A stretch of 64,000 bases of DNA, taken from the IMG/VR virus record IMGVR_UViG_3300045988_108551. One strand, given 5' to 3'. Positions 93-48,074 of this stretch are shown piece by piece. The stretch is from a virus. The notes under the pieces are model-generated. The model was not told the DNA's origin. It saw nothing but the letters and a program-made list of their open reading frames with translations, and did no database searches. Position 1 is the first letter of the stretch. The number at the start of each line of letters is the position of its first letter. A program made the translations under genes and the position numbers.

Positions 93-2270
93 GTGGAATC
101 AGAGGAAGGAAAGAAATGGATTTCTTTTATAGATATGCTGCTTGAATCCGGTGACTCTGAATTGTTACAGATGGGTCAAGATGACATACAAGATCTTAAT
201 GCGTATCTAACCAAGTTAGGTCTTGATCCAGCTTCGTATCAAGTATCGTATTTGAATCCTATTTCAGGGCTTAGAAAAGCTCGTGAGGCTATAGAAAAAT
301 TATCTACGGTTCCTGATGTTGTTAAGTGGGTAGAAGATGGAAGTAGGAGCGTGAAAGACATTGTGACGTCTGAAGTAGAATCTGGAATAGATTTCGAAGG
401 TGAGATGTTTGTCGCTCCTAAGATCAGGATTCAGTTTGGCAAATCATCTTCCAGGCCTAAATCGCTTATAGAGGATGATCTTCCTTTCTCTGATGAGGGT
501 AAGACCGTTACTTCTAAGGTAGAAGATGTGGAAGTTTATGAAGAGGAAATGCCAGAGGAAGGGGCTGCCCGGGAGACTCAGCCGGCGCCATTAGCTCAGC
601 CGGCTCCTGCGGCACAAGATGCGCAGTCTTTACCTGGCAAGAAGCGTACCTCCAGGAAAAACTTCTCTCTTATGTTAAACGAAATAGAATCTCATATAGA
701 AAAAGAGGGATTGCCGCCTTATGCTAATATTTTTGATTTTATAGCAAGGAAGATTGTAGGAGGTGATTTGAGATTTCTTCGTGAGAGAGGTAATCCTAAA
801 AGTCTTAAGGAGGAAATGGGATTAGAACCTAAAGGAACAGTAGGTGATAAAATATCCACTCCTTCTAAAAAGGGAGGTAAGACCTTAGAAGAATATGTTT
901 CTTGGCTTTGTTCTCAAACGGATCAGGTGGTGGTTGATTATGTTGGTCCAAGATCTGACGAACAAATTATATCAGAGTTGAAAAACTTTTTGAAATATAT
1001 TAATTTTGTTCCAAGCAAGGCTTTGAATTATTCTCTTAGAGTCAATGGCATGGATGCCCTAAAAGAATATGGCACAAAAGAGGAAGTAGAAAAAATGGAA
1101 TCTGACATCAATAGTTTGGTTTCTGAAGTTTTGCCTACGGTAGATAATCAAACTGTAGAAGATGTTTCTACTGCAATAGAATTAAATAACTTGCCTGCCA
1201 TATGGAGACCTATGGAAAGCCTTGATATGACAAACGAGGAAAAAATAGAGTTTTTGAATAACGTAGCAGATTTCCTTAGCGGCATTCCAGAGTATGATGC
1301 TGTTGTGGAGTCTATAGAGTCAGAATCATATAATATTTTAAATGATGGAAAAGAAGGAAGTGCAGAAGGCGGTGCAGTACGCGCTGAGGAAGATGGCGAT
1401 AAAAAGGGAGATGGAAAAAGAGAAGGACAACCCAGAGATGATGGCAAAGCTGAGGGAGATGTCTATTTACCTGGATCTGAAGAAGGAAGAGTAGATAACT
1501 ATAAGAAGAACGGAGATAAGTTCTCTGATATTGCCGAAGTTACTTTATGGTTACTTAGAAGGGCTGCCGGCATAACCTCTATCCCGGAAGGAGAAGAGGT
1601 TTATGTAGAGGGGGATGAAGTTAATAGCATTATGACCGATATGGAATCAAGGTACGGGATAGACACCATCAACCACTCGCATACGACTAAGGCTATAAGG
1701 GATCTTAACGGCGTATCAGGTTATAAAGTAGAATACGGCTTAACCTTTTTAACATACGATCCTTTTATTAGAATATCCAATCCAAGGAAAGAATCTAAGG
1801 CCGAGAAAGACGAACCTCGTATATCCGAAGAACCGCTTACTCACATATCAAGGGTAACAACCCCTTATTTCCTGTACGGCGGTGATGAAGCATATACATC
1901 TGTTCCGGCTAAGGTAGAACCTATACCGGAGAAGATAATGGGTCGTAATGGCATTAAATTTGGTATGAGTGTAGTCGAGTTAACCAAATTAGGGTACAAA
2001 AAAGCTGGTGGAAACTGGATATATAAATTCTATATGAACTCAGGTGTGTATGATTTGTATAATATCAGTACCGGTGAAGCGTTTAGGGCAAAACCGGATC
2101 TTGGAGTTAAGATAAGTTCCAGTGCATTCATCCGCTCTTTATCTCAATCTGGTAGAAAAATACAAAATATGATGAGTAATATGAGCCAGGAAGAGATAGA
2201 TAGAAATAAGAATCTCGTAGAAGGTTCTGATAATTCGGATTCGATAAATGAGTTAAATAAAGAGTGTTGA
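93..2270 (+). CDS. Large hypothetical protein (725 aa from GTG at 93; first ATG near 135); acidic with a Pro/Ala/Gln-rich stretch; possibly virion-associated; may be 5'-partial
   Basis: Long ORF. The frame carries no stop back to nt 3, so the gene could continue upstream of the window. No recognisable catalytic motif. Confidence 0.75.
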   Translation: MESEEGKKWISFIDMLLESGDSELLQMGQDDIQDLNAYLTKLGLDPASYQVSYLNPISGLRKAREAIEKLSTVPDVVKWVEDGSRSVKDIVTSEVESGIDFEGEMFVAPKIRIQFGKSSSRPKSLIEDDLPFSDEGKTVTSKVEDVEVYEEEMPEEGAARETQPAPLAQPAPAAQDAQSLPGKKRTSRKNFSLMLNEIESHIEKEGLPPYANIFDFIARKIVGGDLRFLRERGNPKSLKEEMGLEPKGTVGDKISTPSKKGGKTLEEYVSWLCSQTDQVVVDYVGPRSDEQIISELKNFLKYINFVPSKALNYSLRVNGMDALKEYGTKEEVEKMESDINSLVSEVLPTVDNQTVEDVSTAIELNNLPAIWRPMESLDMTNEEKIEFLNNVADFLSGIPEYDAVVESIESESYNILNDGKEGSAEGGAVRAEEDGDKKGDGKREGQPRDDGKAEGDVYLPGSEEGRVDNYKKNGDKFSDIAEVTLWLLRRAAGITSIPEGEEVYVEGDEVNSIMTDMESRYGIDTINHSHTTKAIRDLNGVSGYKVEYGLTFLTYDPFIRISNPRKESKAEKDEPRISEEPLTHISRVTTPYFLYGGDEAYTSVPAKVEPIPEKIMGRNGIKFGMSVVELTKLGYKKAGGNWIYKFYMNSGVYDLYNISTGEAFRAKPDLGVKISSSAFIRSLSQSGRKIQNMMSNMSQEEIDRNKNLVEGSDNSDSINELNKEC

Positions 2271-2272
2271 GT

Positions 2273-2803
2273 ATGAGAAGGAGATTTTTTAATGCTGCGG
2301 ATAATTTCGTGGGACGATGTTATAATAAGTTATCCAATGAAGAGATAAAAAGGCTTGGAGGAAAAAGACCTTATGTATGTCAGTTTAATAAAATTCATAT
2401 ACATATAGGACCTGTATTAAAAGATCATGATTCTGATGTTAGTTACATAATGTTTAATAGTAATTGGAATCATGGTGGTTATGAATCTATGGTTTATAAT
2501 CATAGCAATAATGGTATTTTTATATTAGGTGAAAACAAAATTGGTAACATAGAAGACCATATGCAAGATCTAACATATTGGTACGAATATGATCCGAGTC
2601 TTAATGAAAATTATTGTTATTATTATTATGAAGCTGATAATAGTGGAAATGCTATTAAGTTGAATGGTGAGTTTAGTGATGTTAGCACTGTTTTTAACAT
2701 TCCCAGTTTGGAAGTTACCACTCTTCGTGATGGCAGTTTGAGTTTTCCGGAGATTTATATAGAAGGAATTTGGGATCCGTCATTGTATAAGTCGGTTTTA
2801 TAA
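2273..2803 (+). CDS. Hypothetical protein (about 176 aa), N-terminus MRRRF, Asn/Tyr-rich
   Basis: ORF track gives 2264 (GTG); first ATG at 2273. Overlaps the upstream stop. Stop TAA lies inside an 11-bp inverted repeat. Confidence 0.65.
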   Translation: MRRRFFNAADNFVGRCYNKLSNEEIKRLGGKRPYVCQFNKIHIHIGPVLKDHDSDVSYIMFNSNWNHGGYESMVYNHSNNGIFILGENKIGNIEDHMQDLTYWYEYDPSLNENYCYYYYEADNSGNAIKLNGEFSDVSTVFNIPSLEVTTLRDGSLSFPEIYIEGIWDPSLYKSVL

Positions 2804-2829
2804 TTAACTTTGCAAAAAAGTTAATTACA

Positions 2830-5088
2830 ATGGGTGTCAAATGTCAGATAGAAAAAAAGGAAAATGAAATAAAACGGGTTAAGGCTCCTAACGGGGAGCC
2901 TTCCGTTCTTTACGAAAGTGCTTTAAAAGTATTAGGAAACAGCGAGCGGGCCCTTCAGGTATGGGCTAAGGCTTACACTCCTGGTTTTTTGTCGTATTAC
3001 GGTCATTGGAACAACCCGGCTCCAGGGGAGATGTTTAATACCGATCCCAATGGCGAACCTCTTTTAGAAGACGTGCTGTCGTATATGAAGCGTCAGACTT
3101 ATTTTGCTGATCCTTTAACGGCTCAGGACATTAAGGATGTAAGGGATTTCCTTTTGTCTACTCATTATTTTTTCAATGCGTCTTCATTGTCTAATGCTAT
3201 CCTCTTCGATTTTTATGTAGATGGCAGTTTGATACTGAATGAGCAGAAATTAAGGAGATCCGGTTTGTATGATGAAACAGAAATAAGTCGTATTTTATCC
3301 GATCCTTCTGTTTTAAACGAGGTTTCGACTTCCATGAGAAAGTTAATAGATTCTTCTATTAACGAACATGATAGGGAAAAGGATAATTATTTTATGTCTG
3401 TTGACTATCAGTATGGTCCTATTGTTTACAAGGAGGGAGTGTTTAACCAATTTGGTAAAAAAGTACCATATAATCCTTCTGAGCTTTATTGGGCTATGGG
3501 CAAAACAGTAGCCGGCATAAAAAACTTTTCTGAATTTTCATCTGCTTTTGAATCGTTGAGAAACTCATACCCTGAACTGGTTGAGAAATTCGTTTCTGAT
3601 AAAGAATTTGCCGAATCTATGTTTGATGAGTTCTCATCTACGAATAAGATTCCGGTAATAAACATAGAAGGGGATGATGTGGTAGAAGGCAAGAGAAGAT
3701 CCTTATCTAAGCTACAAGATCTGTCTTATTACAATCCTGGCAAAATAGAGTTCCTAAGAGCTCGTATATCGGCTTATTTACATAGGGCTAATGCCGACAC
3801 CGAATCCGATTTAAGAAGCATGATATGGGATATAGAAGAGGCTTGTACGTGGTTTGGCATAGATATAATAGGGACATCGGAAACTTATGATGGCACAGAA
3901 GAATCTTTGAATAAGATAGATAATTTGATGCTGGATCTTGATATTTATGTGGCCAGGCATAATGATGTAAATTATGCTCCAACGCTGGCATCTTCTATAG
4001 ATGATGTTCTTGGTGATAGCACAGATTATTATTTTGGATTATTACCGGAGTATATGGATAATTTGAATATCGTTTATTCTGAATCCGATATAGACCCAGT
4101 AGAGGCATTTGAGAAACATTCATTGCTTAAGGTAGGAGATAATCTATATCAAAGGATCAGCAAAGATGATCTTAACGAGATGTATCAAATATCAACAGTG
4201 TTAGCCAAGCACAACCTAACTCATTTTTCTACTAAAATATATCCTGAATCTTGTTTTAAGAACGGCGTTTTGGATAAAGAGAAAGTACGGAACGTAGATA
4301 ATAATACGCTCATGGCTTCCATTAAAAAATACGTCAGATCGTTCATGGATTCTCAGAACACGGAGGACATGATAATGACCAGGATGGCGTTTGGACACCC
4401 GGCGGTACTTGACGTTCCTTACGTGGATGTGGATCGGGAGTATAGTCGATACATGAACAAAAAACAAGATAGCGAAAACCCATTATCCTTATTCGATTTA
4501 TACCAATCTTACCTTGACAACAAACTCCATAAAACAAAATTATATGATAATGCCTATAAGTATCTTGACTTCAAACCTGGTCCATCTTTGGGCCTTATTT
4601 CTGATGATCCTGATATTTTGAAATCAATAGAATTATCTTTATCTGGAAAAGACAGGTTGATGTTGTTTGATTATAGCATGACCAGTACCGACCCTTCTTT
4701 ATCAGAATTGTTTTATTTGGAGAAGTATGACCCTTCGTATGCCGGGAATGATTTTGAACACTATTTTTACACCAGGCACCCGTATTTGTTAAAAGAAAAA
4801 TCGGGCCCTAATATCGTAGAGCAAGATGGTGTTATAACAGCCGAAGGTATTTATGATAATTTTATAAGAGTAGGTAATGAGATATGGTCTAAAGTAAGCG
4901 AGAGTAGTTCCGGCTCTATCTACCAAAATCTGACAGGAACCGAATCAGAGGTGAAATACGATTCTACTCAGAAGGCTAAGACGGTAGAAACCGATTACGC
5001 TCTATACCAAAACAGATCTGGCTTGACGCAAGACATGACCGTAAGCAAGCCTGAATTGGATGATCTTAATAAATTGGAATGTAGGTAA
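2830..5088 (+). CDS. Large hypothetical protein (752 aa)
   Basis: ATG start 22 nt downstream of a TAACTTTG (-7-like) motif; uninterrupted 2.26-kb ORF. Confidence 0.85.
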   Translation: MGVKCQIEKKENEIKRVKAPNGEPSVLYESALKVLGNSERALQVWAKAYTPGFLSYYGHWNNPAPGEMFNTDPNGEPLLEDVLSYMKRQTYFADPLTAQDIKDVRDFLLSTHYFFNASSLSNAILFDFYVDGSLILNEQKLRRSGLYDETEISRILSDPSVLNEVSTSMRKLIDSSINEHDREKDNYFMSVDYQYGPIVYKEGVFNQFGKKVPYNPSELYWAMGKTVAGIKNFSEFSSAFESLRNSYPELVEKFVSDKEFAESMFDEFSSTNKIPVINIEGDDVVEGKRRSLSKLQDLSYYNPGKIEFLRARISAYLHRANADTESDLRSMIWDIEEACTWFGIDIIGTSETYDGTEESLNKIDNLMLDLDIYVARHNDVNYAPTLASSIDDVLGDSTDYYFGLLPEYMDNLNIVYSESDIDPVEAFEKHSLLKVGDNLYQRISKDDLNEMYQISTVLAKHNLTHFSTKIYPESCFKNGVLDKEKVRNVDNNTLMASIKKYVRSFMDSQNTEDMIMTRMAFGHPAVLDVPYVDVDREYSRYMNKKQDSENPLSLFDLYQSYLDNKLHKTKLYDNAYKYLDFKPGPSLGLISDDPDILKSIELSLSGKDRLMLFDYSMTSTDPSLSELFYLEKYDPSYAGNDFEHYFYTRHPYLLKEKSGPNIVEQDGVITAEGIYDNFIRVGNEIWSKVSESSSGSIYQNLTGTESEVKYDSTQKAKTVETDYALYQNRSGLTQDMTVSKPELDDLNKLECR

Positions 5089-11160: not shown

Positions 11161-12057
11161 ATGGAATTAAAAGATTTTAAAGATGTAGTTAGAGTGATGA
11201 CAAAAGAAGAGTTCGAATCAGCAATCAACGAAGATATTAAATTCGTTGAAAGATTTAAGCATTTTTTTAAACATGATGATGTTGCGAGGATAATAGAACA
11301 CGTAAAGTCAGTGTTAGAAGCATCAGTGGACTACTGCTATCCGAATCATCCTGAAGTAGAATTTGAAAAAGATTTTAATATACAATACGATGTCAATAAG
11401 ATCTTGAACAAATACGGCCACACCGAAATGGGTCTGTATAAAATACAGCTCTATGTAGAGAATATTTTGGGTAGTATTCAAAACAAGAAGCCTGTAGACA
11501 TGGGAGAAGTTTCTGACGGATACCATACTTTCAATGAATTGTATCGGTACCGTATGTTGTACAACGCCGCCTTCTTTAATCTATTAGCCAGAAACGGACA
11601 GGTTGAAGTTTGCAAATCAAGAAGGCACAGCGACGGAGAAAAATGCTTCGGTTCTGATGATTGGTTTATTGTGATGGCAATGTTACCCACTGGTCAGGTG
11701 TCTAATCACTATGAAAGCAAGTACTGGGATTTGTTTGATGTTCCAGAGAGAGAAACCTCTTTCGAATATGATGGTCATACACCAAATGAAGCCGCCGACA
11801 GACTTGAACAGTATCTTAATCAAAAGAAGTCAGGTTTAACATTTGAAGAAGCTTTTAAATTTCTGAAAGATGGTAATATGATCAAAAGACGTGGATGGAA
11901 AAATGAACATCTTGATGCTTTTAGAAGAAGTGGTGTTAGCTCAATTCATGTGGAAAAGTCATTGATCATAATTATAAATGAAGAAACACGGAGGCTGACA
12001 TCGTGGAACCCAAGTATAGAAGATATATCGTCAAATGATTGGGAGATTACGAAATGA
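11161..12057 (+). CDS. Hypothetical protein (298 aa)
   Basis: Long ORF with ATG start. Confidence 0.8.
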   Translation: MELKDFKDVVRVMTKEEFESAINEDIKFVERFKHFFKHDDVARIIEHVKSVLEASVDYCYPNHPEVEFEKDFNIQYDVNKILNKYGHTEMGLYKIQLYVENILGSIQNKKPVDMGEVSDGYHTFNELYRYRMLYNAAFFNLLARNGQVEVCKSRRHSDGEKCFGSDDWFIVMAMLPTGQVSNHYESKYWDLFDVPERETSFEYDGHTPNEAADRLEQYLNQKKSGLTFEEAFKFLKDGNMIKRRGWKNEHLDAFRRSGVSSIHVEKSLIIIINEETRRLTSWNPSIEDISSNDWEITK

Positions 12058-23727: not shown

Positions 23728-24253
23728 ATTTTAGATTTTCAAGTTCGAGTATTTGTAACCTAAGAGACTTAATTAAATCCGTTCTCTGTTCCTCTGCATG
23801 TTTTAAAGCCTCTTCCTTGCTTTCAAAAGCACAATCCCCTATCTGATAAGGGGTGTAACGACCAGGAGTGTCGGCTAATAAAAGACCACCACAATCTTCT
23901 ATTCTGGCTTTTACCTTTCTTATTTTCCCATCTTTTAGACACATGTCCGTAACCCATACGAATTTACCATATAATTTATCATACTCTTCTAATCTCTCTT
24001 CTTGCAATTCATACCATTTAGGCTTAGGAAATCTTAATGTGAATTTAATTTCGGTATCTTTCTCTAAGACATTAATATCATACGCCTCCGGCCACAGTTC
24101 TTTTATGCTGTCTTCATCTTCAGCATACGCCACCAATACAAATGAATTATCGGATTCTGCACTACACCAATATGGATATTTTATAGGCCATTTGACTGGA
24201 CGGTAGTCGTTGTCGCAGTCGGATTTTTTAATGTAAAATCTTGCTCTAATCAT
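23711..24253 (-). CDS. Hypothetical protein (180 aa)
   Basis: ORF with ATGA overlap with the methyltransferase gene. Confidence 0.7.
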   Translation of the reverse strand: MIRARFYIKKSDCDNDYRPVKWPIKYPYWCSAESDNSFVLVAYAEDEDSIKELWPEAYDINVLEKDTEIKFTLRFPKPKWYELQEERLEEYDKLYGKFVWVTDMCLKDGKIRKVKARIEDCGGLLLADTPGRYTPYQIGDCAFESKEEALKHAEEQRTDLIKSLRLQILELENLKFECDD

Positions 24254-25449
24254 GATTCTTTTATTCTTTTAAGTATATGTTCAATAACTTTAATAGTCCA
24301 CCCGTTTCCCAACATCTTGTACTGTTGGGTTTCGCTGCATTCCCATTTATACCAATCTGGTACAGTCTGTAACCTGGAGCACTCTGTAGGGGTTAATCTT
24401 CTTATTCTGAAATCGCCATGTAATGTTCTCTGTATGATAAAATTGTTTCTATCATATGAATTACAAGATAATGTTGGAGTCTTATCTTCATGAAATCCAC
24501 CTTTGTTAAATCCTCTTGGTATTTGGAAAATAAGATTATCTTTCTGAACTGTTGTGAGACAATTGGATTTTCCATCGTTTTTAAATTCAATCATCTGAAC
24601 TGTTTTAAGACCAGATTCTCTACATGTAGGTTTTTCTGGATTCCTACCTCTCATTGCTACACAAATAAGATCGTACGTGTATTTACCCTTTACGGTAACA
24701 GTATTGGATTTTTCATCTTTTGTTTTAATATTAGCTCCATAATAATTCCCCTTGTCGTGATTTCTTTTCAAGTGAAAAGCTAAATTGTTTAAAACTTTTT
24801 CAGATAAGTAATATTTTTCATCTACTTCATATTCCTCTATATCACTTATGGTCAAACCCTCGTCTTTAGGCTGAGGGATAATGCCGCCTTGAATATTAGT
24901 CCAATAAATACGTTTCCTGGTTTGAGCGGAAACAAGTGCTGAATTAATATGATTGCCTTTACACCCTATAGCATCATCGAATACCGGCTCCCATTTCTTT
25001 CCCATCTTAACGTTCTCAAGAAGAAACAACACATCAGGATTAGTTTTTCTTACATCATTCAAAATACGAATAAACTCCCAGAATAAGTAAGACTGACCGG
25101 CAAATTCAAATCCTTGTTTTTTTAATTCAAGATACTCATCAAGTGATTTGATTTCTATTCCTTCTACGGTAGACAACCCTTTTCTTTTTCCAGAAAAGGA
25201 CATATCTGTACATGGGCTGCCGGCTAAAATAAGATCTATGTGTCCAAGATCTTCTACATTCAAATCCCTTACATCTCCTACTTGTATCGTATTAGGGAAA
25301 TTTAATTGCGTTTGTTTAATAGCAAACTTATCTATTTCTGATGCATAATATACTTCAGGTGTGATCCCTACTTCTTTTAACGCTATTTGACCACATGACA
25401 TTCCGTCAAATAAACTTAACACTCTCATGGCATTATACACATTTTTCAA
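24250..25449 (-). CDS. DNA (cytosine-5)-methyltransferase
   Basis: Motif I LFDGMSCG (FxGxG), motif IV GSPCTDMSFSG (PC), motif VI ENV (LLENVKM), C-terminal QTVPDWY ... GNGWT. No adjacent restriction endonuclease. Confidence 0.9.
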   Translation of the reverse strand: MKNVYNAMRVLSLFDGMSCGQIALKEVGITPEVYYASEIDKFAIKQTQLNFPNTIQVGDVRDLNVEDLGHIDLILAGSPCTDMSFSGKRKGLSTVEGIEIKSLDEYLELKKQGFEFAGQSYLFWEFIRILNDVRKTNPDVLFLLENVKMGKKWEPVFDDAIGCKGNHINSALVSAQTRKRIYWTNIQGGIIPQPKDEGLTISDIEEYEVDEKYYLSEKVLNNLAFHLKRNHDKGNYYGANIKTKDEKSNTVTVKGKYTYDLICVAMRGRNPEKPTCRESGLKTVQMIEFKNDGKSNCLTTVQKDNLIFQIPRGFNKGGFHEDKTPTLSCNSYDRNNFIIQRTLHGDFRIRRLTPTECSRLQTVPDWYKWECSETQQYKMLGNGWTIKVIEHILKRIKES

Positions 25450-25741
25450 TTTTAATTAATTTTGATGATAGATACATATTCCATTTTCCTCTGCCTCTAT
25501 CACCTTTTTCGTTTTGTTTTTGGATTGTCAAGTACAGATCTCCGTCTTCACATACTTCAACTTTTTTCAAGAAGCCTATCATTTCATCTCCTGTTTCGTG
25601 TAAAATACGGATCTTATCTCCTTCTTTTAACCCATAATTGGAATCAAAGTATTCTTTTTTGATTCTATCAATATTGTCTTTATGTTTTTTTATAGCATAA
25701 AGCTCTTTTCTTAATAAATAATTTAGTTGTTCTATTGTCAT
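25433..25741 (-). CDS. Hypothetical protein (102 aa)
   Basis: ORF overlapping neighbouring genes. Confidence 0.6.
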   Translation of the reverse strand: MTIEQLNYLLRKELYAIKKHKDNIDRIKKEYFDSNYGLKEGDKIRILHETGDEMIGFLKKVEVCEDGDLYLTIQKQNEKGDRGRGKWNMYLSSKLIKIEKCV

Positions 25742-26295
25742 TTCTTTTCCTCCTTATTTAATGGTATTAATCCTTTCCCGTGCTTATCATACCACAGCAT
25801 AGCTATACAATTCCATGCACATTGTGCAAGATGAAAACATCCTGTATCAGAATCCACTCTTTCTCCTTTCATGTATTCTATCAGGTGTCTAAACATTGCC
25901 GCGCGATACCGTTCAAAGCCGTTGTCAAGATTCTGCCAATTATTAGGCCCATATTTCTTGGCTCCAGCATGATAGACTTTTACAATGTCCTCAATTTCTT
26001 CCATCGGAAGCAAATCCCATCGTAGTTTATCGTCAATGATGTCATTTTTCACCGATTTGTTTTCTCTGGATACTTTGACAGGAATAATACCCATAATGTC
26101 CGTTCCTATGATAAACGTCTCTCCATTGCAACAAACCTCAGCATATTCATCATCTACCTCTATGTCTGATACTGCCTCCACTATAGCTCCTCTGGCTATT
26201 TCTAATTCGGAACTGATTACATCACTTTCCAACATGCGAAAAATAGATCCTTTTGGATAAAGGATCTGTTTAGTATTATTGTCCATCTTTTCCAT
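25738..26295 (-). CDS. dATP/dGTP diphosphohydrolase-like N-terminal-domain protein (phage nucleotide pyrophosphohydrolase family)
   Basis: RWDLLP ... YHAGAKKYGPNNW ... RYRAAMFRHL ... HLAQCAWNCIAMLWY matches the conserved R-DLLP / GA-KY / NW / RHL / HLA-WN pattern of that phage family as I recall it. Confidence 0.6.
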   Translation of the reverse strand: MEKMDNNTKQILYPKGSIFRMLESDVISSELEIARGAIVEAVSDIEVDDEYAEVCCNGETFIIGTDIMGIIPVKVSRENKSVKNDIIDDKLRWDLLPMEEIEDIVKVYHAGAKKYGPNNWQNLDNGFERYRAAMFRHLIEYMKGERVDSDTGCFHLAQCAWNCIAMLWYDKHGKGLIPLNKEEKK

Positions 26296-30979: not shown

Positions 30980-31142
30980 AATGCTTGGTCAGTTCTTCTG
31001 GTTCTAAATCTTGTCCAAAATCCATGTTAAAAATATCGTAATTAGTAAAGCACTTAAAATCACTGTCCCTGCCGGCATGAAATCTATGAATGCTGCTTTT
31101 GCTTCTTCAATTAGGCCCAAGTGTAACCTTGGGCCATTGTAT

Positions 31143-32843
31143 TTATTTTTTGTCATCTCCTTTTAACTTCTTTAAAGTATCTGCAATCGGAAGCTGATCA
31201 ATGACTCCCAATGCCGGAGCGACGGTCTTGACAACATTATTAAGGAAATTACCGGTACTGTTCTGACCGCCGTCAAATACCGTGATATTTCCGAGGTTAA
31301 TGTGCTCAAATGCTTTAACCTGTTCTCCAGCAATTTCTTTCCACTGATTAACCATCTTGTACTGGATGGCGATCTGAGGATTGGATTCTGCTGCTTCCAC
31401 CATAGCCTTAAATCCGTCGGCTTCTGCCATTAACGACTTTTTCTTACCTTCGGCTTCTGCCTCCAGTTTCATCTGAATAGCTTTTGCCTCTGCCTCAGCT
31501 TTTGCCAAATGTGCTGATGCCTCAGCCTCAGCCCGGCGTTTGATCTTCTCGGCCTCGGCATCAGCTTGCAAGATAGCCTCTTCCTTCTGGGTTTCAGCCG
31601 GCACAATCTTTTCAGCCTTAAGCGCAGCCTGAACTTTCTTAGCCTTAGCTTCTTCCACTTCTTTGTCGGCAAGCTCTTTTGCTGTTTTTACAGCCGCTTC
31701 CGATTTAACTTTTTCTTCTCCGGCCTTCTTTTCTGATTGAGCTTTGATGATCTGTAGTTCTGATACTGACACAGCAACCTCCTTCTGGGCATTGTTGTAT
31801 CCTATAGACGCATTTTTCTCAGCCTCAGCCTTCTTAATCTGAGCTTCAGAGTCTTGTATTGCTATAGCCGCTTCCTTGTCAGCTTCAGCCTTATTCTTTC
31901 CGACTTCTTCCATCCTTTCAGCCTCGGCTTTATTTACTTCAAGTTCTGCCTTAGATCTTACGATCGCCGATTCCTTGTCGGTTAAAGTTTTTGCGATAAC
32001 CGCAGCCCTGTCTCTATCTGCTTGAGCTACACCGATCTGTTTCTCTTTATCGGTTAAAGCCAAGGCTATTTCTTTTTCTTTCTTCGTTTCAGCTACTATC
32101 GTTTCCTTTTCTTTTTCAGTACAAGCAATTTGAATCTCTTGTTCTTTTTTGGTATTAGCCACAGCCGTTTCTTTCTCCTTCTGCTGTACAGCAATCTTAA
32201 TAGCACCCAGCTTCTCCTGCTCTTCGATATTAGCCTGTGCTTCGTTCAGAGCCCTACTTTCAGCCTCCTTACCAAGGTTCATAATATAACCGGCTTCGTC
32301 TCTGATGTCACTGATGTTGATGTTCAGGAGGTAAAGACCTAACTTATTAAGCTCGTTATCAATGTTCTTTCTTGCCTTATCCAAAAACTCATCCCTGTCA
32401 GAATTAAGTTTTTCGATTGTCATTTCAGCAATAATCAAACGCATCTGACCGTAAACGATGTCCGTAATAAGATTTTCAGTAGATTCGGTATCCATCCCCA
32501 AAAGTCTTTCTGCCGCATTTTGCATGATTTCGGGATTTGTACTGATAGCTACTGTAATGGTCGTAGGTACATCTACTCTAATATTCTGAGATGACAAAGC
32601 ACCGGTAAGCTTGCAATCTATTTGCATAGGCTCCATTGACAAAACATCATAGCTTTGAATAATAGGCAAGACAAATGCCGCTCCACCATGATATAATTTC
32701 GCCGATTTCTTTTCCCCACCTGTCTTACCATAAACGACCAAGACCTGATTAGGCTTACATCTACGATACCTTGATAAGACTCCGATGATTGTCAAAATAA
32801 TCACTACAGCTAAGATAGCTGACACGTACATGATTGTTGTCAT
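31143..32843 (-). CDS. Flotillin-like SPFH/band-7 protein (YqiK-like) with an N-terminal transmembrane helix and Ala/Glu/Lys-repeat coiled coil
   Basis: N-terminal TM (VSAILAVVIILTIIGVL), then an SPFH-like domain (NQVLVVYGKTGG ... IRVDVPTTITVAIS ... IVYGQMRLIIAEMTIEKL), then a long EAEAKA-type coiled coil and a C-terminal tail. Confidence 0.9.
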   Translation of the reverse strand: MTTIMYVSAILAVVIILTIIGVLSRYRRCKPNQVLVVYGKTGGEKKSAKLYHGGAAFVLPIIQSYDVLSMEPMQIDCKLTGALSSQNIRVDVPTTITVAISTNPEIMQNAAERLLGMDTESTENLITDIVYGQMRLIIAEMTIEKLNSDRDEFLDKARKNIDNELNKLGLYLLNINISDIRDEAGYIMNLGKEAESRALNEAQANIEEQEKLGAIKIAVQQKEKETAVANTKKEQEIQIACTEKEKETIVAETKKEKEIALALTDKEKQIGVAQADRDRAAVIAKTLTDKESAIVRSKAELEVNKAEAERMEEVGKNKAEADKEAAIAIQDSEAQIKKAEAEKNASIGYNNAQKEVAVSVSELQIIKAQSEKKAGEEKVKSEAAVKTAKELADKEVEEAKAKKVQAALKAEKIVPAETQKEEAILQADAEAEKIKRRAEAEASAHLAKAEAEAKAIQMKLEAEAEGKKKSLMAEADGFKAMVEAAESNPQIAIQYKMVNQWKEIAGEQVKAFEHINLGNITVFDGGQNSTGNFLNNVVKTVAPALGVIDQLPIADTLKKLKGDDKK

Positions 32844-32874
32844 AACTTTTAAAATTTAATTGTTGATAAAAAAA

Positions 32875-33369
32875 TTAGATACTTAATTCTCCTTCTTCAT
32901 ATTTTATATTCGCCTTGTCGCCGTTTTTGTAGGTTTTTCCAGACAAGCATCTTACTCTCATTTGCTCTTGTCTTCCATTTTTCGAAATATTTACCATATA
33001 ATGATTCTTCCCTGATCTAAATACTATCTCCACTTCTCTTCCGTTTAAATCTTCCGGACATTCGTACACCATTTCTTGCTTTAACTTAAGAAGTAACTTA
33101 TATACGTAAAACAAAACGATAAAGAAAAACGACCCTATCACAACCCCTACTAAATGGGAACCCGAAAAGTAGGTAGTCCAGCTATATCCAAGAATAAAAT
33201 GTGTTATGCCCTTGAATGATATGATGTCCGACAAAGACATACTTAAATCAGAAGCACTGTCAATGTCAATATCCGTATCCAGATCAGATCCTAATATCGA
33301 CAACAAAAACTGTATAACAAAAGCAAATGACGCTATTAAAGCCATGCATAAAATTATGTCACTTCCCAT
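32875..33369 (-). CDS. NfeD/YqiJ-like membrane protein (partner of SPFH proteins)
   Basis: Two TM segments separated by an acidic DLDTDIDIDSASD stretch (YqiJ hallmark) and a C-terminal beta-rich soluble domain. Lies 31 nt upstream of the flotillin gene on the same strand. Confidence 0.75.
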   Translation of the reverse strand: MGSDIILCMALIASFAFVIQFLLSILGSDLDTDIDIDSASDLSMSLSDIISFKGITHFILGYSWTTYFSGSHLVGVVIGSFFFIVLFYVYKLLLKLKQEMVYECPEDLNGREVEIVFRSGKNHYMVNISKNGRQEQMRVRCLSGKTYKNGDKANIKYEEGELSI

Positions 33370-33610
33370 ACCCTTCTGTTATTATTTTGTAAACAAGATC
33401 AGTCATATCTTTGATGGTCTCCATATCATAATCAATAATAACAATATTGAATTTTTGTTCCACCATCACTTCCAGTTCAATTTGATCAACAGAATCTAAT
33501 CCAAGTTCTTTAAACGTCACATCTTCTTCATGAACTATATCTATTTCCGAATTAAGAAACTGAGTAATAATTATATCCTCTATTATCTTTCTGATTCTTA
33601 CTTTTTCCAT
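33359..33610 (-). CDS. Acyl carrier protein (83 aa)
   Basis: LGLDSVDQIELEVMVEQKFNIVI matches the ACP phosphopantetheine-attachment helix II (DSL/DSV Ser followed by acidic EL.M.E). Acidic, small, four-helix-sized. Confidence 0.8.
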   Translation of the reverse strand: MEKVRIRKIIEDIIITQFLNSEIDIVHEEDVTFKELGLDSVDQIELEVMVEQKFNIVIIDYDMETIKDMTDLVYKIITEGYGK

Positions 33611-34311
33611 TGCTTTCTAATTTTGTTAAATAAATACGTTTTTATGTTTTTCAATCGCTCTTTGTCTGTTTCAGAACTTCCGGTAAACAAATAATCCGGA
33701 TTGCCTTTAGCCGGCGGCGTAGGCAATTTAGATACGGCAAACAACCAATCCATTTCCTTATTCTTCTTAGACTCCAAATAAGGCTCGGTAGCGATCTTAA
33801 ATTTTTCAGCTATTAAGTCAAAGAGCTTTGAATTTTTAAGGTTCATATGAACTGAAAAAGCCTGAGAAGGCGGTTTCCATATGAAGTTACATAAGCTCAT
33901 TGTATAATCTCCTGACTCTGCTATATAAGATTCCGTTACCTGAAGTATGACCTCTTTCTTGAATGAGGTGTTACCCATAAACCAACACAATCTGGATTCC
34001 GCTTCTTTTCTGCTGACACCTATGTCTTTTGAATACGATTCGTACATTCCTATCATAATCTTCAACGTTTCCAGAACCTCGTCTGTCATTTCCGGTGTCT
34101 CTATATAATTCACAAAAGACGTTCCCTTGTTGGTCAATCTCATCACGCCTGATTTTAATTTCTCAACCAGGCCAAGCTCTATATACCTCCCAGCATCTTC
34201 TTCCGGCATGGCTTCGATCATAACCGAATCCTTCTGTCTTATGGCAAGAAGATTGGCAAGATCATTAGGAGTCATGTCTGATGCTGCAAGTTGTCTGAAA
34301 TTGATGTACAT
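33598..34311 (-). CDS. Hypothetical protein (237 aa), first large gene of the flotillin/NfeD/ACP operon
   Basis: 13-nt overlap with the ACP gene and 2-nt gap to the upstream small gene. Confidence 0.7.
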   Translation of the reverse strand: MYINFRQLAASDMTPNDLANLLAIRQKDSVMIEAMPEEDAGRYIELGLVEKLKSGVMRLTNKGTSFVNYIETPEMTDEVLETLKIMIGMYESYSKDIGVSRKEAESRLCWFMGNTSFKKEVILQVTESYIAESGDYTMSLCNFIWKPPSQAFSVHMNLKNSKLFDLIAEKFKIATEPYLESKKNKEMDWLFAVSKLPTPPAKGNPDYLFTGSSETDKERLKNIKTYLFNKIRKQWKK

Positions 34312-34313
34312 TC

Positions 34314-34511
34314 TTAATCAGCTTTAATAAAAATAACATTCTTGTTATCTTGTCTATCAACATGTCCACATGGACCAATAATTATGTCTGTATATGAACA
34401 AGAATCGTAATCTTCGAATATACACCTATCGCATGTATCACCTTCCACACATTTTAATCTTACAAGTCCGGCAGGAAATACTTCTCCTACTTTAAATTCC
34501 TTCTTTTCCAT
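34314..34511 (-). CDS. Small Cys-rich protein (65 aa)
   Basis: C..C ... C ... C pattern (CVEGDTCDRC ... C ... C). Confidence 0.5.
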   Translation of the reverse strand: MEKKEFKVGEVFPAGLVRLKCVEGDTCDRCIFEDYDSCSYTDIIIGPCGHVDRQDNKNVIFIKAD

Positions 34512-47261: not shown

Positions 47262-48074
47262 TCATTTATTTGTTTCACTTATGAAATTGACAACATCCTT
47301 TAGATATCCTTCTGTCATCTCTATGAAATTCACACAATCTAATTTGCTTAACTTGTAAATCAACGCCGGATTGTGTACTATGGCTATAATTTGTGTTTGT
47401 GGTTTATGGAATGATAATACATTATAAATTTGCATTATGTTATCAATATCAAGATTCCTATCTGGCTCATCCATGAGAACCGTGTATTCAAAACTGCTTT
47501 CTGTTAATGTTATGCGGTTTCTTTCATAATACTTCAACAGGTTATCAATTCTTTTAATCCAAAACGCATTTGATTTTTTCTTGTATTCTACAAGATCTTG
47601 TATTGGAAATGTATAATCCTTTTGACCGAACATTAAATTGAAAAGTGATTCCAATGACAACACCACTTTCTCTCCATAAGATCTTCGAATATTATTCACA
47701 TACAAATCTAAGTTGCTGATGTTTTTCAATACGCTATCTCGATTCATCTCCGCCGATGGCAATAAACGGAATACTTTCCCTGCATAATCGGATGATATGT
47801 CAATCCCATCAAGAACCTTGTCATCATCATCATCATCAAATATAGGTGGAAAATCCAGTGCCTCGATCGGTATTTCAGAGCACATGGATTTCTCACATAA
47901 CGCATACATTGATATGATGTTAAGCAAGGTCGATTTTCCACTACCGTTTTTCCCTATAATCACATTCACTCCTGGCTTGAAAATAAATTCTCTGCCATTT
48001 TCAAATGCTTCTATATCCGAAACATATTCAAATGGAGTTTTTGTATTGTCTTTTATTTTTACTGATGTTATCAT
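47262..48074 (-). CDS. Standalone ABC-type (RecF/SbcC-like) ATPase, 270 aa
   Basis: Walker A GKNGSGKST, SYGEK (signature-like), Walker B VLMDEPDRNLD, H-loop AIVHNP, and an acidic DDDDDD insert. Confidence 0.85.
   Translation of the reverse strand: MITSVKIKDNTKTPFEYVSDIEAFENGREFIFKPGVNVIIGKNGSGKSTLLNIISMYALCEKSMCSEIPIEALDFPPIFDDDDDDKVLDGIDISSDYAGKVFRLLPSAEMNRDSVLKNISNLDLYVNNIRRSYGEKVVLSLESLFNLMFGQKDYTFPIQDLVEYKKKSNAFWIKRIDNLLKYYERNRITLTESSFEYTVLMDEPDRNLDIDNIMQIYNVLSFHKPQTQIIAIVHNPALIYKLSKLDCVNFIEMTEGYLKDVVNFISETNK

Follow-up and report, generated by a model that had tools for sequence, protein, structure and literature searches.

In this study, we show that an epsilon crAss-like phage of the human gut carries a real gene for a stand-alone acyl carrier protein (ACP), and we tentatively suggest that a host AcpS-dependent carrier or competitor in host acyl-ACP metabolism is its most likely role. 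A carrier primed by host AcpS is the best-supported reading because helix II of the protein is kept in an AcpS-compatible form, no phage enzyme able to serve it was recognised, and a sister lineage carries a canonical orthologue. The ACP itself is already known in kind (the phrog_5934 class) and in annotation (GenBank, IMG), so that the finding restates an existing annotation. Three minor points are new: the upstream neighbour can be set aside as a partner enzyme, the surroundings of the ACP are defined as an NfeD-flotillin cassette with its boundaries, and the serine is found to have been lost in sister lineages.

Results

The window, by which we mean the whole analysed stretch of 64,000 nucleotides (IMG/VR record IMGVR_UViG_3300045988_108551), has the ACP gene among replication genes on the minus strand (Table 1). 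The ORF starts with ATG, and the protein begins with MEKVRIRKIIEDII and has 20 acidic and 9 basic residues (pI 4.28). It matches the Pfam family PP-binding (PF00550) with 26.7 bits against a gathering cut-off of 20.8 (E 6.8e-6), phrog_5934 'acyl carrier protein' with 35.2 bits (E 2.1e-8, residues 9-75), and dozens of ACP structures in the PDB (best E 7.7e-6), with sequence alignments that span residues 3-78 of the 83-aa protein and run through helices II to IV. The preliminary description of this DNA, which had recognised an acidic 83-aa protein of the ACP family and had proposed a PP-binding profile search, is thus confirmed by a match above the gathering cut-off as well as by phrog_5934 and the solved structures. 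NCBIfam ACP models are matched with E down to 2.8e-7, every one below its equivalog cut-off. Because the scores for the housekeeping AcpP equivalog (TIGR00517 / NF002148-NF002151) were tested and not reached, the window ACP is not a housekeeping AcpP equivalog.

Table 1. Features around the ACP gene of the window, followed by the content of the corresponding variable slot in the window and in related phage genomes
Feature	Position	Strand	Basis or gene content	Motif
ACP gene, stand-alone, 83 aa, pI 4.3	33359..33610	-	PP-binding, phrog_5934 and PDB ACP matches; named 'acyl carrier protein' by the sources	
Helix II recognition motif LGLDSVDQIELEVMVE	33458..33505	-	Register to E. coli AcpP set on the DSxD motif	
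Ser40 codon TCT, predicted 4'-phosphopantetheine attachment site	33491..33493	-	Reads aga on the + strand	
NfeD-type membrane protein	32875..33369	-	Predicted long N-terminal helices (probably membrane-spanning) and C-terminal beta-barrel	
Flotillin (SPFH/Band 7 and Flot domains), NfeD operon partner	31143..32843	-	Pfam, NCBIfam	
50-aa ORF with hydrophobic C-terminal stretch, cassette end	31004..31156	-	ORF list	
Exchangeable cassette (most of ACP, NfeD, flotillin, most of 50-aa ORF)	31033..33570	-	Window compared with L215	
p237, 237-aa winged-helix protein of the replication module	33598..34311	-	Predicted structure	
65-aa Cys-rich ORF	34314..34511	-	Sub-threshold hits only	
Slot of the window			ACP, NfeD, flotillin, 50-aa ORF	DSV
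Slot of L087/L211 (p237 77% identical)			Canonical ACP, NfeD, flotillin	DSL
Slot of L084 and L217-L219			ACP homologue, then C5 methylase and two generic radical SAM genes	D-D-L (Asp)
Slot of L215, L220, L221			ACP homologue alone	D-Y or D-F (Tyr/Phe)
Slot of L086, L088, L089, L090			No ACP	None

Residues 36-51 of the protein (LGLDSVDQIELEVMVE) hold the recognition motif. In the DSxD register, D39, S40, V41, D42, E45 and E51 of the window ACP are the equivalents of D35, S36, L37, D38, E41 and E47 of E. coli AcpP, and the alignment of the motif serine with Ser36 agrees with its earlier prediction as the phosphopantetheine position. D35, E41 and E47/48 have a role in the modification of E. coli ACP by AcpS, and neutralising the AcpS-contact positions stops this modification (bioRxiv 10.1101/2025.01.28.635281). 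The equivalents of the residues needed by E. coli AcpS (D35, S36, D38, E41, E47) are present in all major ACP haplotypes: all ten retain D39, S40, D42, E45 and E51, and they read LGLDS[VIL]D[QR]IEL[ED]xMVEQ. The window ACP resembles bacterial AcpP (TIGR00517, PF00550) in size, acidity, the register of helices I and II, the D-S-x-D motif and the D35/S36/D38/E41/E47 equivalents. Unlike E. coli AcpP, to which it is 28% identical, it has DSV instead of DSL, and Q52 and K53 stand where E. coli AcpP has E48 and E49; unlike housekeeping AcpP in general, it scores 28.5 bits against the TIGR00517 cut-off of 70.45 and has no fab or pls genes nearby. A recent bacterial donor was not identified, AcpPs of many phyla being only about 44-67% identical (50-57% near full length).

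The ORF is a real gene and not a chance ORF. About 95% of IMG/VR genomes carry it intact, stops or frameshifts occur in about 5% of copies, and deletion-fusion alleles exist in public data besides the nonsense and frameshift alleles. Its pN/pS is 0.30, compared with 0.04-0.08 for neighbouring genes, which indicates purifying but relaxed selection, with a constraint about five times weaker than that on the neighbours.

Over 6 kb around the gene, the window shares 98% identity with GenBank OR575929 (phage csAssE-Sib, 151 kb), in which the same gene, with no real difference, is already annotated as 'acyl carrier protein' (WOZ57347.1); the paper describing the csAssE-Sib genome does not discuss it. 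Ten common alleles that were queried, the window's among them, occur on 131 to >1000 contigs each and on >6,500 in total, and their sources call them 'acyl carrier protein', 'DUF1493' or 'phosphopantetheine-binding protein'. Those queried within the 90% cluster of the window ACP are called 'acyl carrier protein'; public collections contain the exact window protein, and identical proteins are named ACP by NCBI and JGI. The ACP is an accessory gene of a very common human-gut crAss-like phage. One allele stands in RefSeq under 'uncultured Dialister sp.' (WP_288877835.1), a label that probably arose as a binning error in a metagenome-assembled genome and should not be taken to indicate the host.

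Conservation of the serine had been named beforehand as one of two points on which the assignment would stand or fall, and the outcome is divided, the serine being kept in the window lineage and replaced by Asp or by Tyr/Phe in two sister lineages. Among the 119 IMG/VR orthologues retrieved by a DNA pattern that left the serine codon free, the Ser40 codon is TCT in 118 and TAT in one. The closest variants listed (120, of which 111 are full-length) lack the serine in 32 full-length cases (29%; F 16, P 13, Y 2, A 1) and have 54% of their non-consensus residues within helix II, in a list that counts distinct, mostly singleton, unclustered sequences and not contig frequency. Weighted by contigs, Ser-less alleles amount to <2%, and the apparent hypervariability of the serine, which had resembled an arms-race signal, was accordingly rejected as an estimate of frequency. 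The S40F and S40P alleles nonetheless come from contigs of at least 15 different sequencing runs and at least eight haplotype backgrounds, and their contigs reach 140 kb among those inspected. Ser-less alleles of the window lineage are rare, but real and recurrent. Mutagenesis of helix II by a diversity-generating retroelement (DGR) was rejected, since the changes, as reasoned from the codons, are not adenine-specific. Several of the S40F/S40P contigs have a split downstream flotillin ORF or none; a link between Ser-less alleles and flotillin decay was dropped, flotillin being disrupted at 5 of 11 Ser-less and 32 of 94 serine loci by a first heuristic, which is not clearly different, and a tblastn re-count of the flotillin state took in serine alleles only.

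Pfam scans took the longest ORF of every non-overlapping slot in the window, down to a length of about 90-100 aa, together with the neighbours of the ACP, at E <= 0.01 (E <= 0.1 in one of the scans). Among the scanned window ORFs of at least about 90 aa there was no ACPS/4'-PPTase, ketoacyl synthase, acyltransferase, AMP-binding or thioesterase family and no acyl-ACP synthetase, and none of these enzyme classes is annotated over positions 1-146004 of the 151-kb OR575929. The earlier statement that the 64 kb hold no recognisable phosphopantetheinyl transferase (PPTase) or acyl-synthase partner is thus upheld by the Pfam scans and by the annotation of OR575929. Likewise, no cognate PPTase or loading enzyme of a PKS, NRPS, lipid A, sphingolipid or RiPP-type cluster was found in the scanned window ORFs or over OR575929 1-146004. 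The genes around the ACP encode DnaB, the winged-helix protein, NfeD, flotillin and a PD-(D/E)XK nuclease, with no fab or pls gene among them. A divergent enzyme among the many unannotated phage genes would still be compatible with a scan of this kind, which reads sequence only. Since no priming, loading or using enzyme of the phage is recognisable, the ACP would depend on host enzymes.

The Pfam hits of the window belong mostly to replication and nucleotide metabolism (DnaB, primase DUF6371, helicases, PD-(D/E)XK nuclease, C5 methylase, dATP/dGTP diphosphohydrolase); others are an AAA_21 ATPase, a protein with a Tad2-like domain and an AntA/T5orf172 protein. PADLOC defence-system models gave nothing significant. 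The Tad2-like protein (11161-12057, plus strand, 298 aa) combines a WDGH domain (E 4.7e-36) with a Tad2-like Thoeris anti-defence domain (E 3.6e-11). At 24250-26295 (minus strand) a C5 cytosine DNA methylase lies near a protein with a dATP/dGTP diphosphohydrolase N-domain, with one ORF of about 100 aa between them, a proximity that hints at phage DNA modification or nucleotide-pool editing. The ATPase (47262-48074, minus strand, 270 aa) is a P-loop protein with AAA_21 (AbiEii-like) and SMC_N head matches, located among early genes.

The preliminary description had also allowed for cooperation of the ACP with either of two upstream neighbours, and neither proposal was supported. The protein p237 has no profile match in Pfam, PHROGs or NCBIfam. 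Its model, built from a 45-sequence alignment (pLDDT 86), is helical, with a predicted MarR-like winged helix as N-terminal domain and a helical C-terminal domain, and the protein is a conserved member of the crAss-like replication module; a fold search against viral proteins gave significant matches only to proteins from Cellulophaga phage phi14:2 and from a crAss-like virus. For its size it was considered as an Sfp-type or AcpS-type PPTase; it is not one, having neither an ACPS/4'-PPTase profile match nor the alpha/beta PPTase fold. The ACP gene follows p237 directly in all four ACP-bearing lineages, with an overlap of 13-37 nt. However, p237 is present in four relatives that have no ACP, and in one of them (L089) a non-ACP gene follows with the same 13-nt overlap. 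The overlap and adjacency are therefore not specific to the ACP, and p237 is not a demonstrated ACP partner. The 65-aa ORF still further upstream showed no link to the ACP; it evolves near-neutrally (pN/pS 0.97), an alternative allele of 68-69 aa occurs in close relatives, and it is either fast-evolving or not under constraint at the protein level.

Downstream of the ACP lies an NfeD-flotillin pair that the preliminary description had overlooked. The NfeD gene overlaps the ACP stop by 11 nt, and the flotillin matches Pfam Band_7 (E 7.6e-26) and Flot (E 1e-9) as well as NCBIfam FloT (E 2.8e-42, below the cut-off). A predicted membrane-anchored NfeD with a C-terminal OB-like beta-barrel thus adjoins an SPFH/Band 7 protein, which is the arrangement of an NfeD-SPFH operon. 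The pair (31143-33369, minus strand) is a phage-borne operon, and only 11 of 50,697 phage records have flotillin relatives. Both genes are under strong purifying selection (pN/pS 0.04-0.07). Flotillin was intact in 68 of 93 related genomes, being absent in 17, partly deleted in five and split in three; the ACP gene is present in these 25 too, and the serine codon is kept in 93 of 93. An ORF of 50-52 aa after the flotillin is also found in L087 and L211.

In relatives of the phage the backbone of this region reads primase, DUF3268, DnaB, a protein of about 200 aa, p237, a variable slot, a protein of about 100-120 aa (recurring in most relatives), PD-(D/E)XK nuclease and helicase. The ACP homologues of the four lineages that have one in the slot share only about 26-39% protein identity. 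The orthologue of L087 passes TIGR00517 (74.3 bits; cut-off 70.45). The Asp-type homologue occurs in four genomes with 78-100% identity and the motif LGFDDLD (L084:6675-6938; L217-L219 at 3501-3770), and both the Asp-type and the Tyr/Phe-type homologues still match ACP models (E 2.6e-10 and 9.4e-14). NfeD and flotillin are present in the two serine-bearing lineages and absent in both Ser-less lineages. The radical SAM pair beside the Asp-type ACP of L084 was rejected as a set of ACP-dependent enzymes, with only generic MoaA-/viperin-like matches.

The limits of the block are given by L215, whose two flanks match the window at 95% and 89% identity and in which window positions 33570..31033 are replaced by about 290 bp; the 3' end of the 50-aa ORF is common to the window and to this alternative cassette. 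The ACP-NfeD-flotillin block is thus an exchangeable cassette. As judged from these alignments, this is a cassette polymorphism within one phage species, with the ACP as an accessory gene in a hot spot. The replacing stretch of about 290 bp (L215:5041-5335, also in L220 and L221) codes for the Tyr/Phe-type ACP homologue, which overlaps a hydrophobic ORF of 62 aa. Separately, unrelated high-GC phage contigs (L222-L224, about 2075-3737) have an 81-aa ACP with the motif LELDSIE directly after a gene of about 470 aa that begins like a DnaB-type helicase, and ACP genes inside phage replication modules may be recurrent.

Discussion

The AcpP-like ACP is carried as a non-core early gene in the variable slot of the replication module, and most likely its product would be converted to the holo form by host AcpS. 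The holo protein, through helix II, might then engage ACP-client enzymes of the host, namely those of type II fatty-acid, phospholipid and lipid A synthesis, and as a parallel carrier or competitor it could shift host acyl-ACP metabolism during infection. The use of host AcpS and of host fatty-acid enzymes had been proposed in the preliminary description; the part that stands is that host AcpS would be the only route to the holo form and that the AcpS-contact residues are kept, observations that speak to the route and not to modification itself. An interaction with host FabZ has been predicted for another phage ACP (bioRxiv 10.64898/2026.03.01.708874). Some findings count against a host-primed role. 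With 28% identity, the protein is distant from housekeeping AcpP, and host enzymes may accept it poorly as a substrate; moreover, the intact Ser-less homologues of the two sister lineages, the S40F/S40P alleles seen on many runs, the weaker constraint and the stop, frameshift and deletion alleles all argue in the same direction.

Stand-alone ACP genes have been reported in jumbo phages, roseophages and others, and the literature that we searched reports no tested function of a phage ACP. Like the stand-alone phage ACPs of phrog_5934 (filed as moron or auxiliary metabolic gene), the window ACP matches the profile and is an orphan without cognate enzymes; unlike the others, it lies in a crAss-like replication module beside NfeD-flotillin, and the serine has been lost in its sister lineages. 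It also resembles mitochondrial ACP, which serves as a structural subunit in assemblies of complex I, ISD11 and the mitoribosome, the best PDB match being SDAP1 of complex I (7ar9). Mitochondrial ACP exemplifies an ACP that acts chiefly as a binding module, and the likeness is only a lead, since the mitochondrial assemblies need the acyl-pantetheine arm and partners with an LYR motif, whereas no LYR-type partner was identified for the window ACP. Acyl-AcpB acting as a ligand of the MarR regulator FabT offers a further comparison, from which p237 differs in its 237 aa, its extra helical domain and its frequent occurrence without an ACP in relatives.

The main rival to a host-primed carrier, which we regard as unlikely yet deserving of attention, is that the protein is a mimic independent of the prosthetic group, that is, an acidic four-helix decoy or inhibitor that binds a host ACP-client or another host or phage protein and for which the serine is an unneeded ancestral feature. 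Overproduction of apo-ACP is reportedly toxic to E. coli (Keating, Carey and Cronan 1995), which would suit a mimic. The sister lineages keep intact, lineage-conserved homologues with Asp (L084, L217-L219) or Tyr/Phe (L215, L220, L221) that still score as ACPs, and at least part of the function of the family therefore needs no prosthetic group; the spread of S40F and S40P over at least 15 runs and the lack of a phage enzyme able to use acyl-ACP point the same way. On the other hand, about 98-99% of the genomes in the window lineage retain the serine together with all the acidic AcpS-contact residues, which pure binding would not predict, and the contig share of Ser-less alleles is very low (<2%). 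The locus might also encode a two-state host-interaction module whose key surface is formed by helix II and the serine, in which the serine form goes with NfeD-flotillin, the Ser-less forms are obligate apo-ACP mimics, and the recurrent S40F/S40P alleles are a sign that phosphopantetheinylation is conditionally selected against in certain hosts. This is a speculative and rather improbable proposal, which draws on four lineages and rare alleles; if true, it would mean that the phage tunes or blocks the ACP-dependent metabolism of its host by an undescribed strategy.

The cassette, p237-ligand and passenger readings are weaker than the mimic. The ACP, NfeD, flotillin and the 50-aa hydrophobic ORF could form a membrane cassette that remodels or stabilises the host membrane in a long-lasting infection, with holo- or acyl-ACP supplying lipid to flotillin microdomains or regulating its delivery. 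The four genes lie side by side, overlapping or separated by no more than about 31 nt in a layout compatible with co-transcription, they move together as an exchangeable block of 2.5 kb found in two lineages only 71-75% identical in DNA, the constraint on NfeD and flotillin is strong, and the serine is kept in both lineages with NfeD-flotillin and lost in both without. We nevertheless find this reading improbable, because that correlation comes from four lineages only, 25 of 93 related genomes have the ACP with an absent or damaged flotillin, a bacterial-type relative of the NfeD has no ACP upstream, and no link between a phage ACP and flotillin was found in the searched literature. That the gene is a nearly neutral passenger, a captured bacterial acpP decaying slowly without a role in infection, seems very unlikely: its pN/pS is five to seven times that of neighbouring genes, disrupted alleles of several kinds occur and the whole cassette is replaceable, but the value remains well below 1, the ORF is intact in the great majority of genomes, every major haplotype retains the serine and helix II (>6,500 contigs), and ACP homologues persist at the locus in four deeply diverged lineages. 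Least likely of all, to our mind, is that the ACP is a ligand or subunit of p237 that couples phage replication or transcription to the acyl-ACP state of the host, as acyl-ACP does on FabT. Its constant place after p237 in four of four ACP-bearing lineages, and that of the ACP after the gene with a DnaB-like start in the high-GC phage, would fit; the four relatives with p237 and no ACP, the same 13-nt overlap before a non-ACP gene, a MarR resemblance that is that of a generic winged helix, and Ser-less homologues that cannot carry an acyl chain do not.

Stand-alone ACP genes recur in phage genomes, and the one described here belongs to one of the most widespread phages of the human gut. The serine-bearing and Ser-less homologues at a single locus provide a natural contrast for whether the prosthetic group matters, and the phage ACP may act together with the phage flotillin. 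Should a host-primed ACP redirect or block the lipid metabolism of the host, the phage would have a simple lever on Bacteroidales physiology in persistent crAss-like infection.
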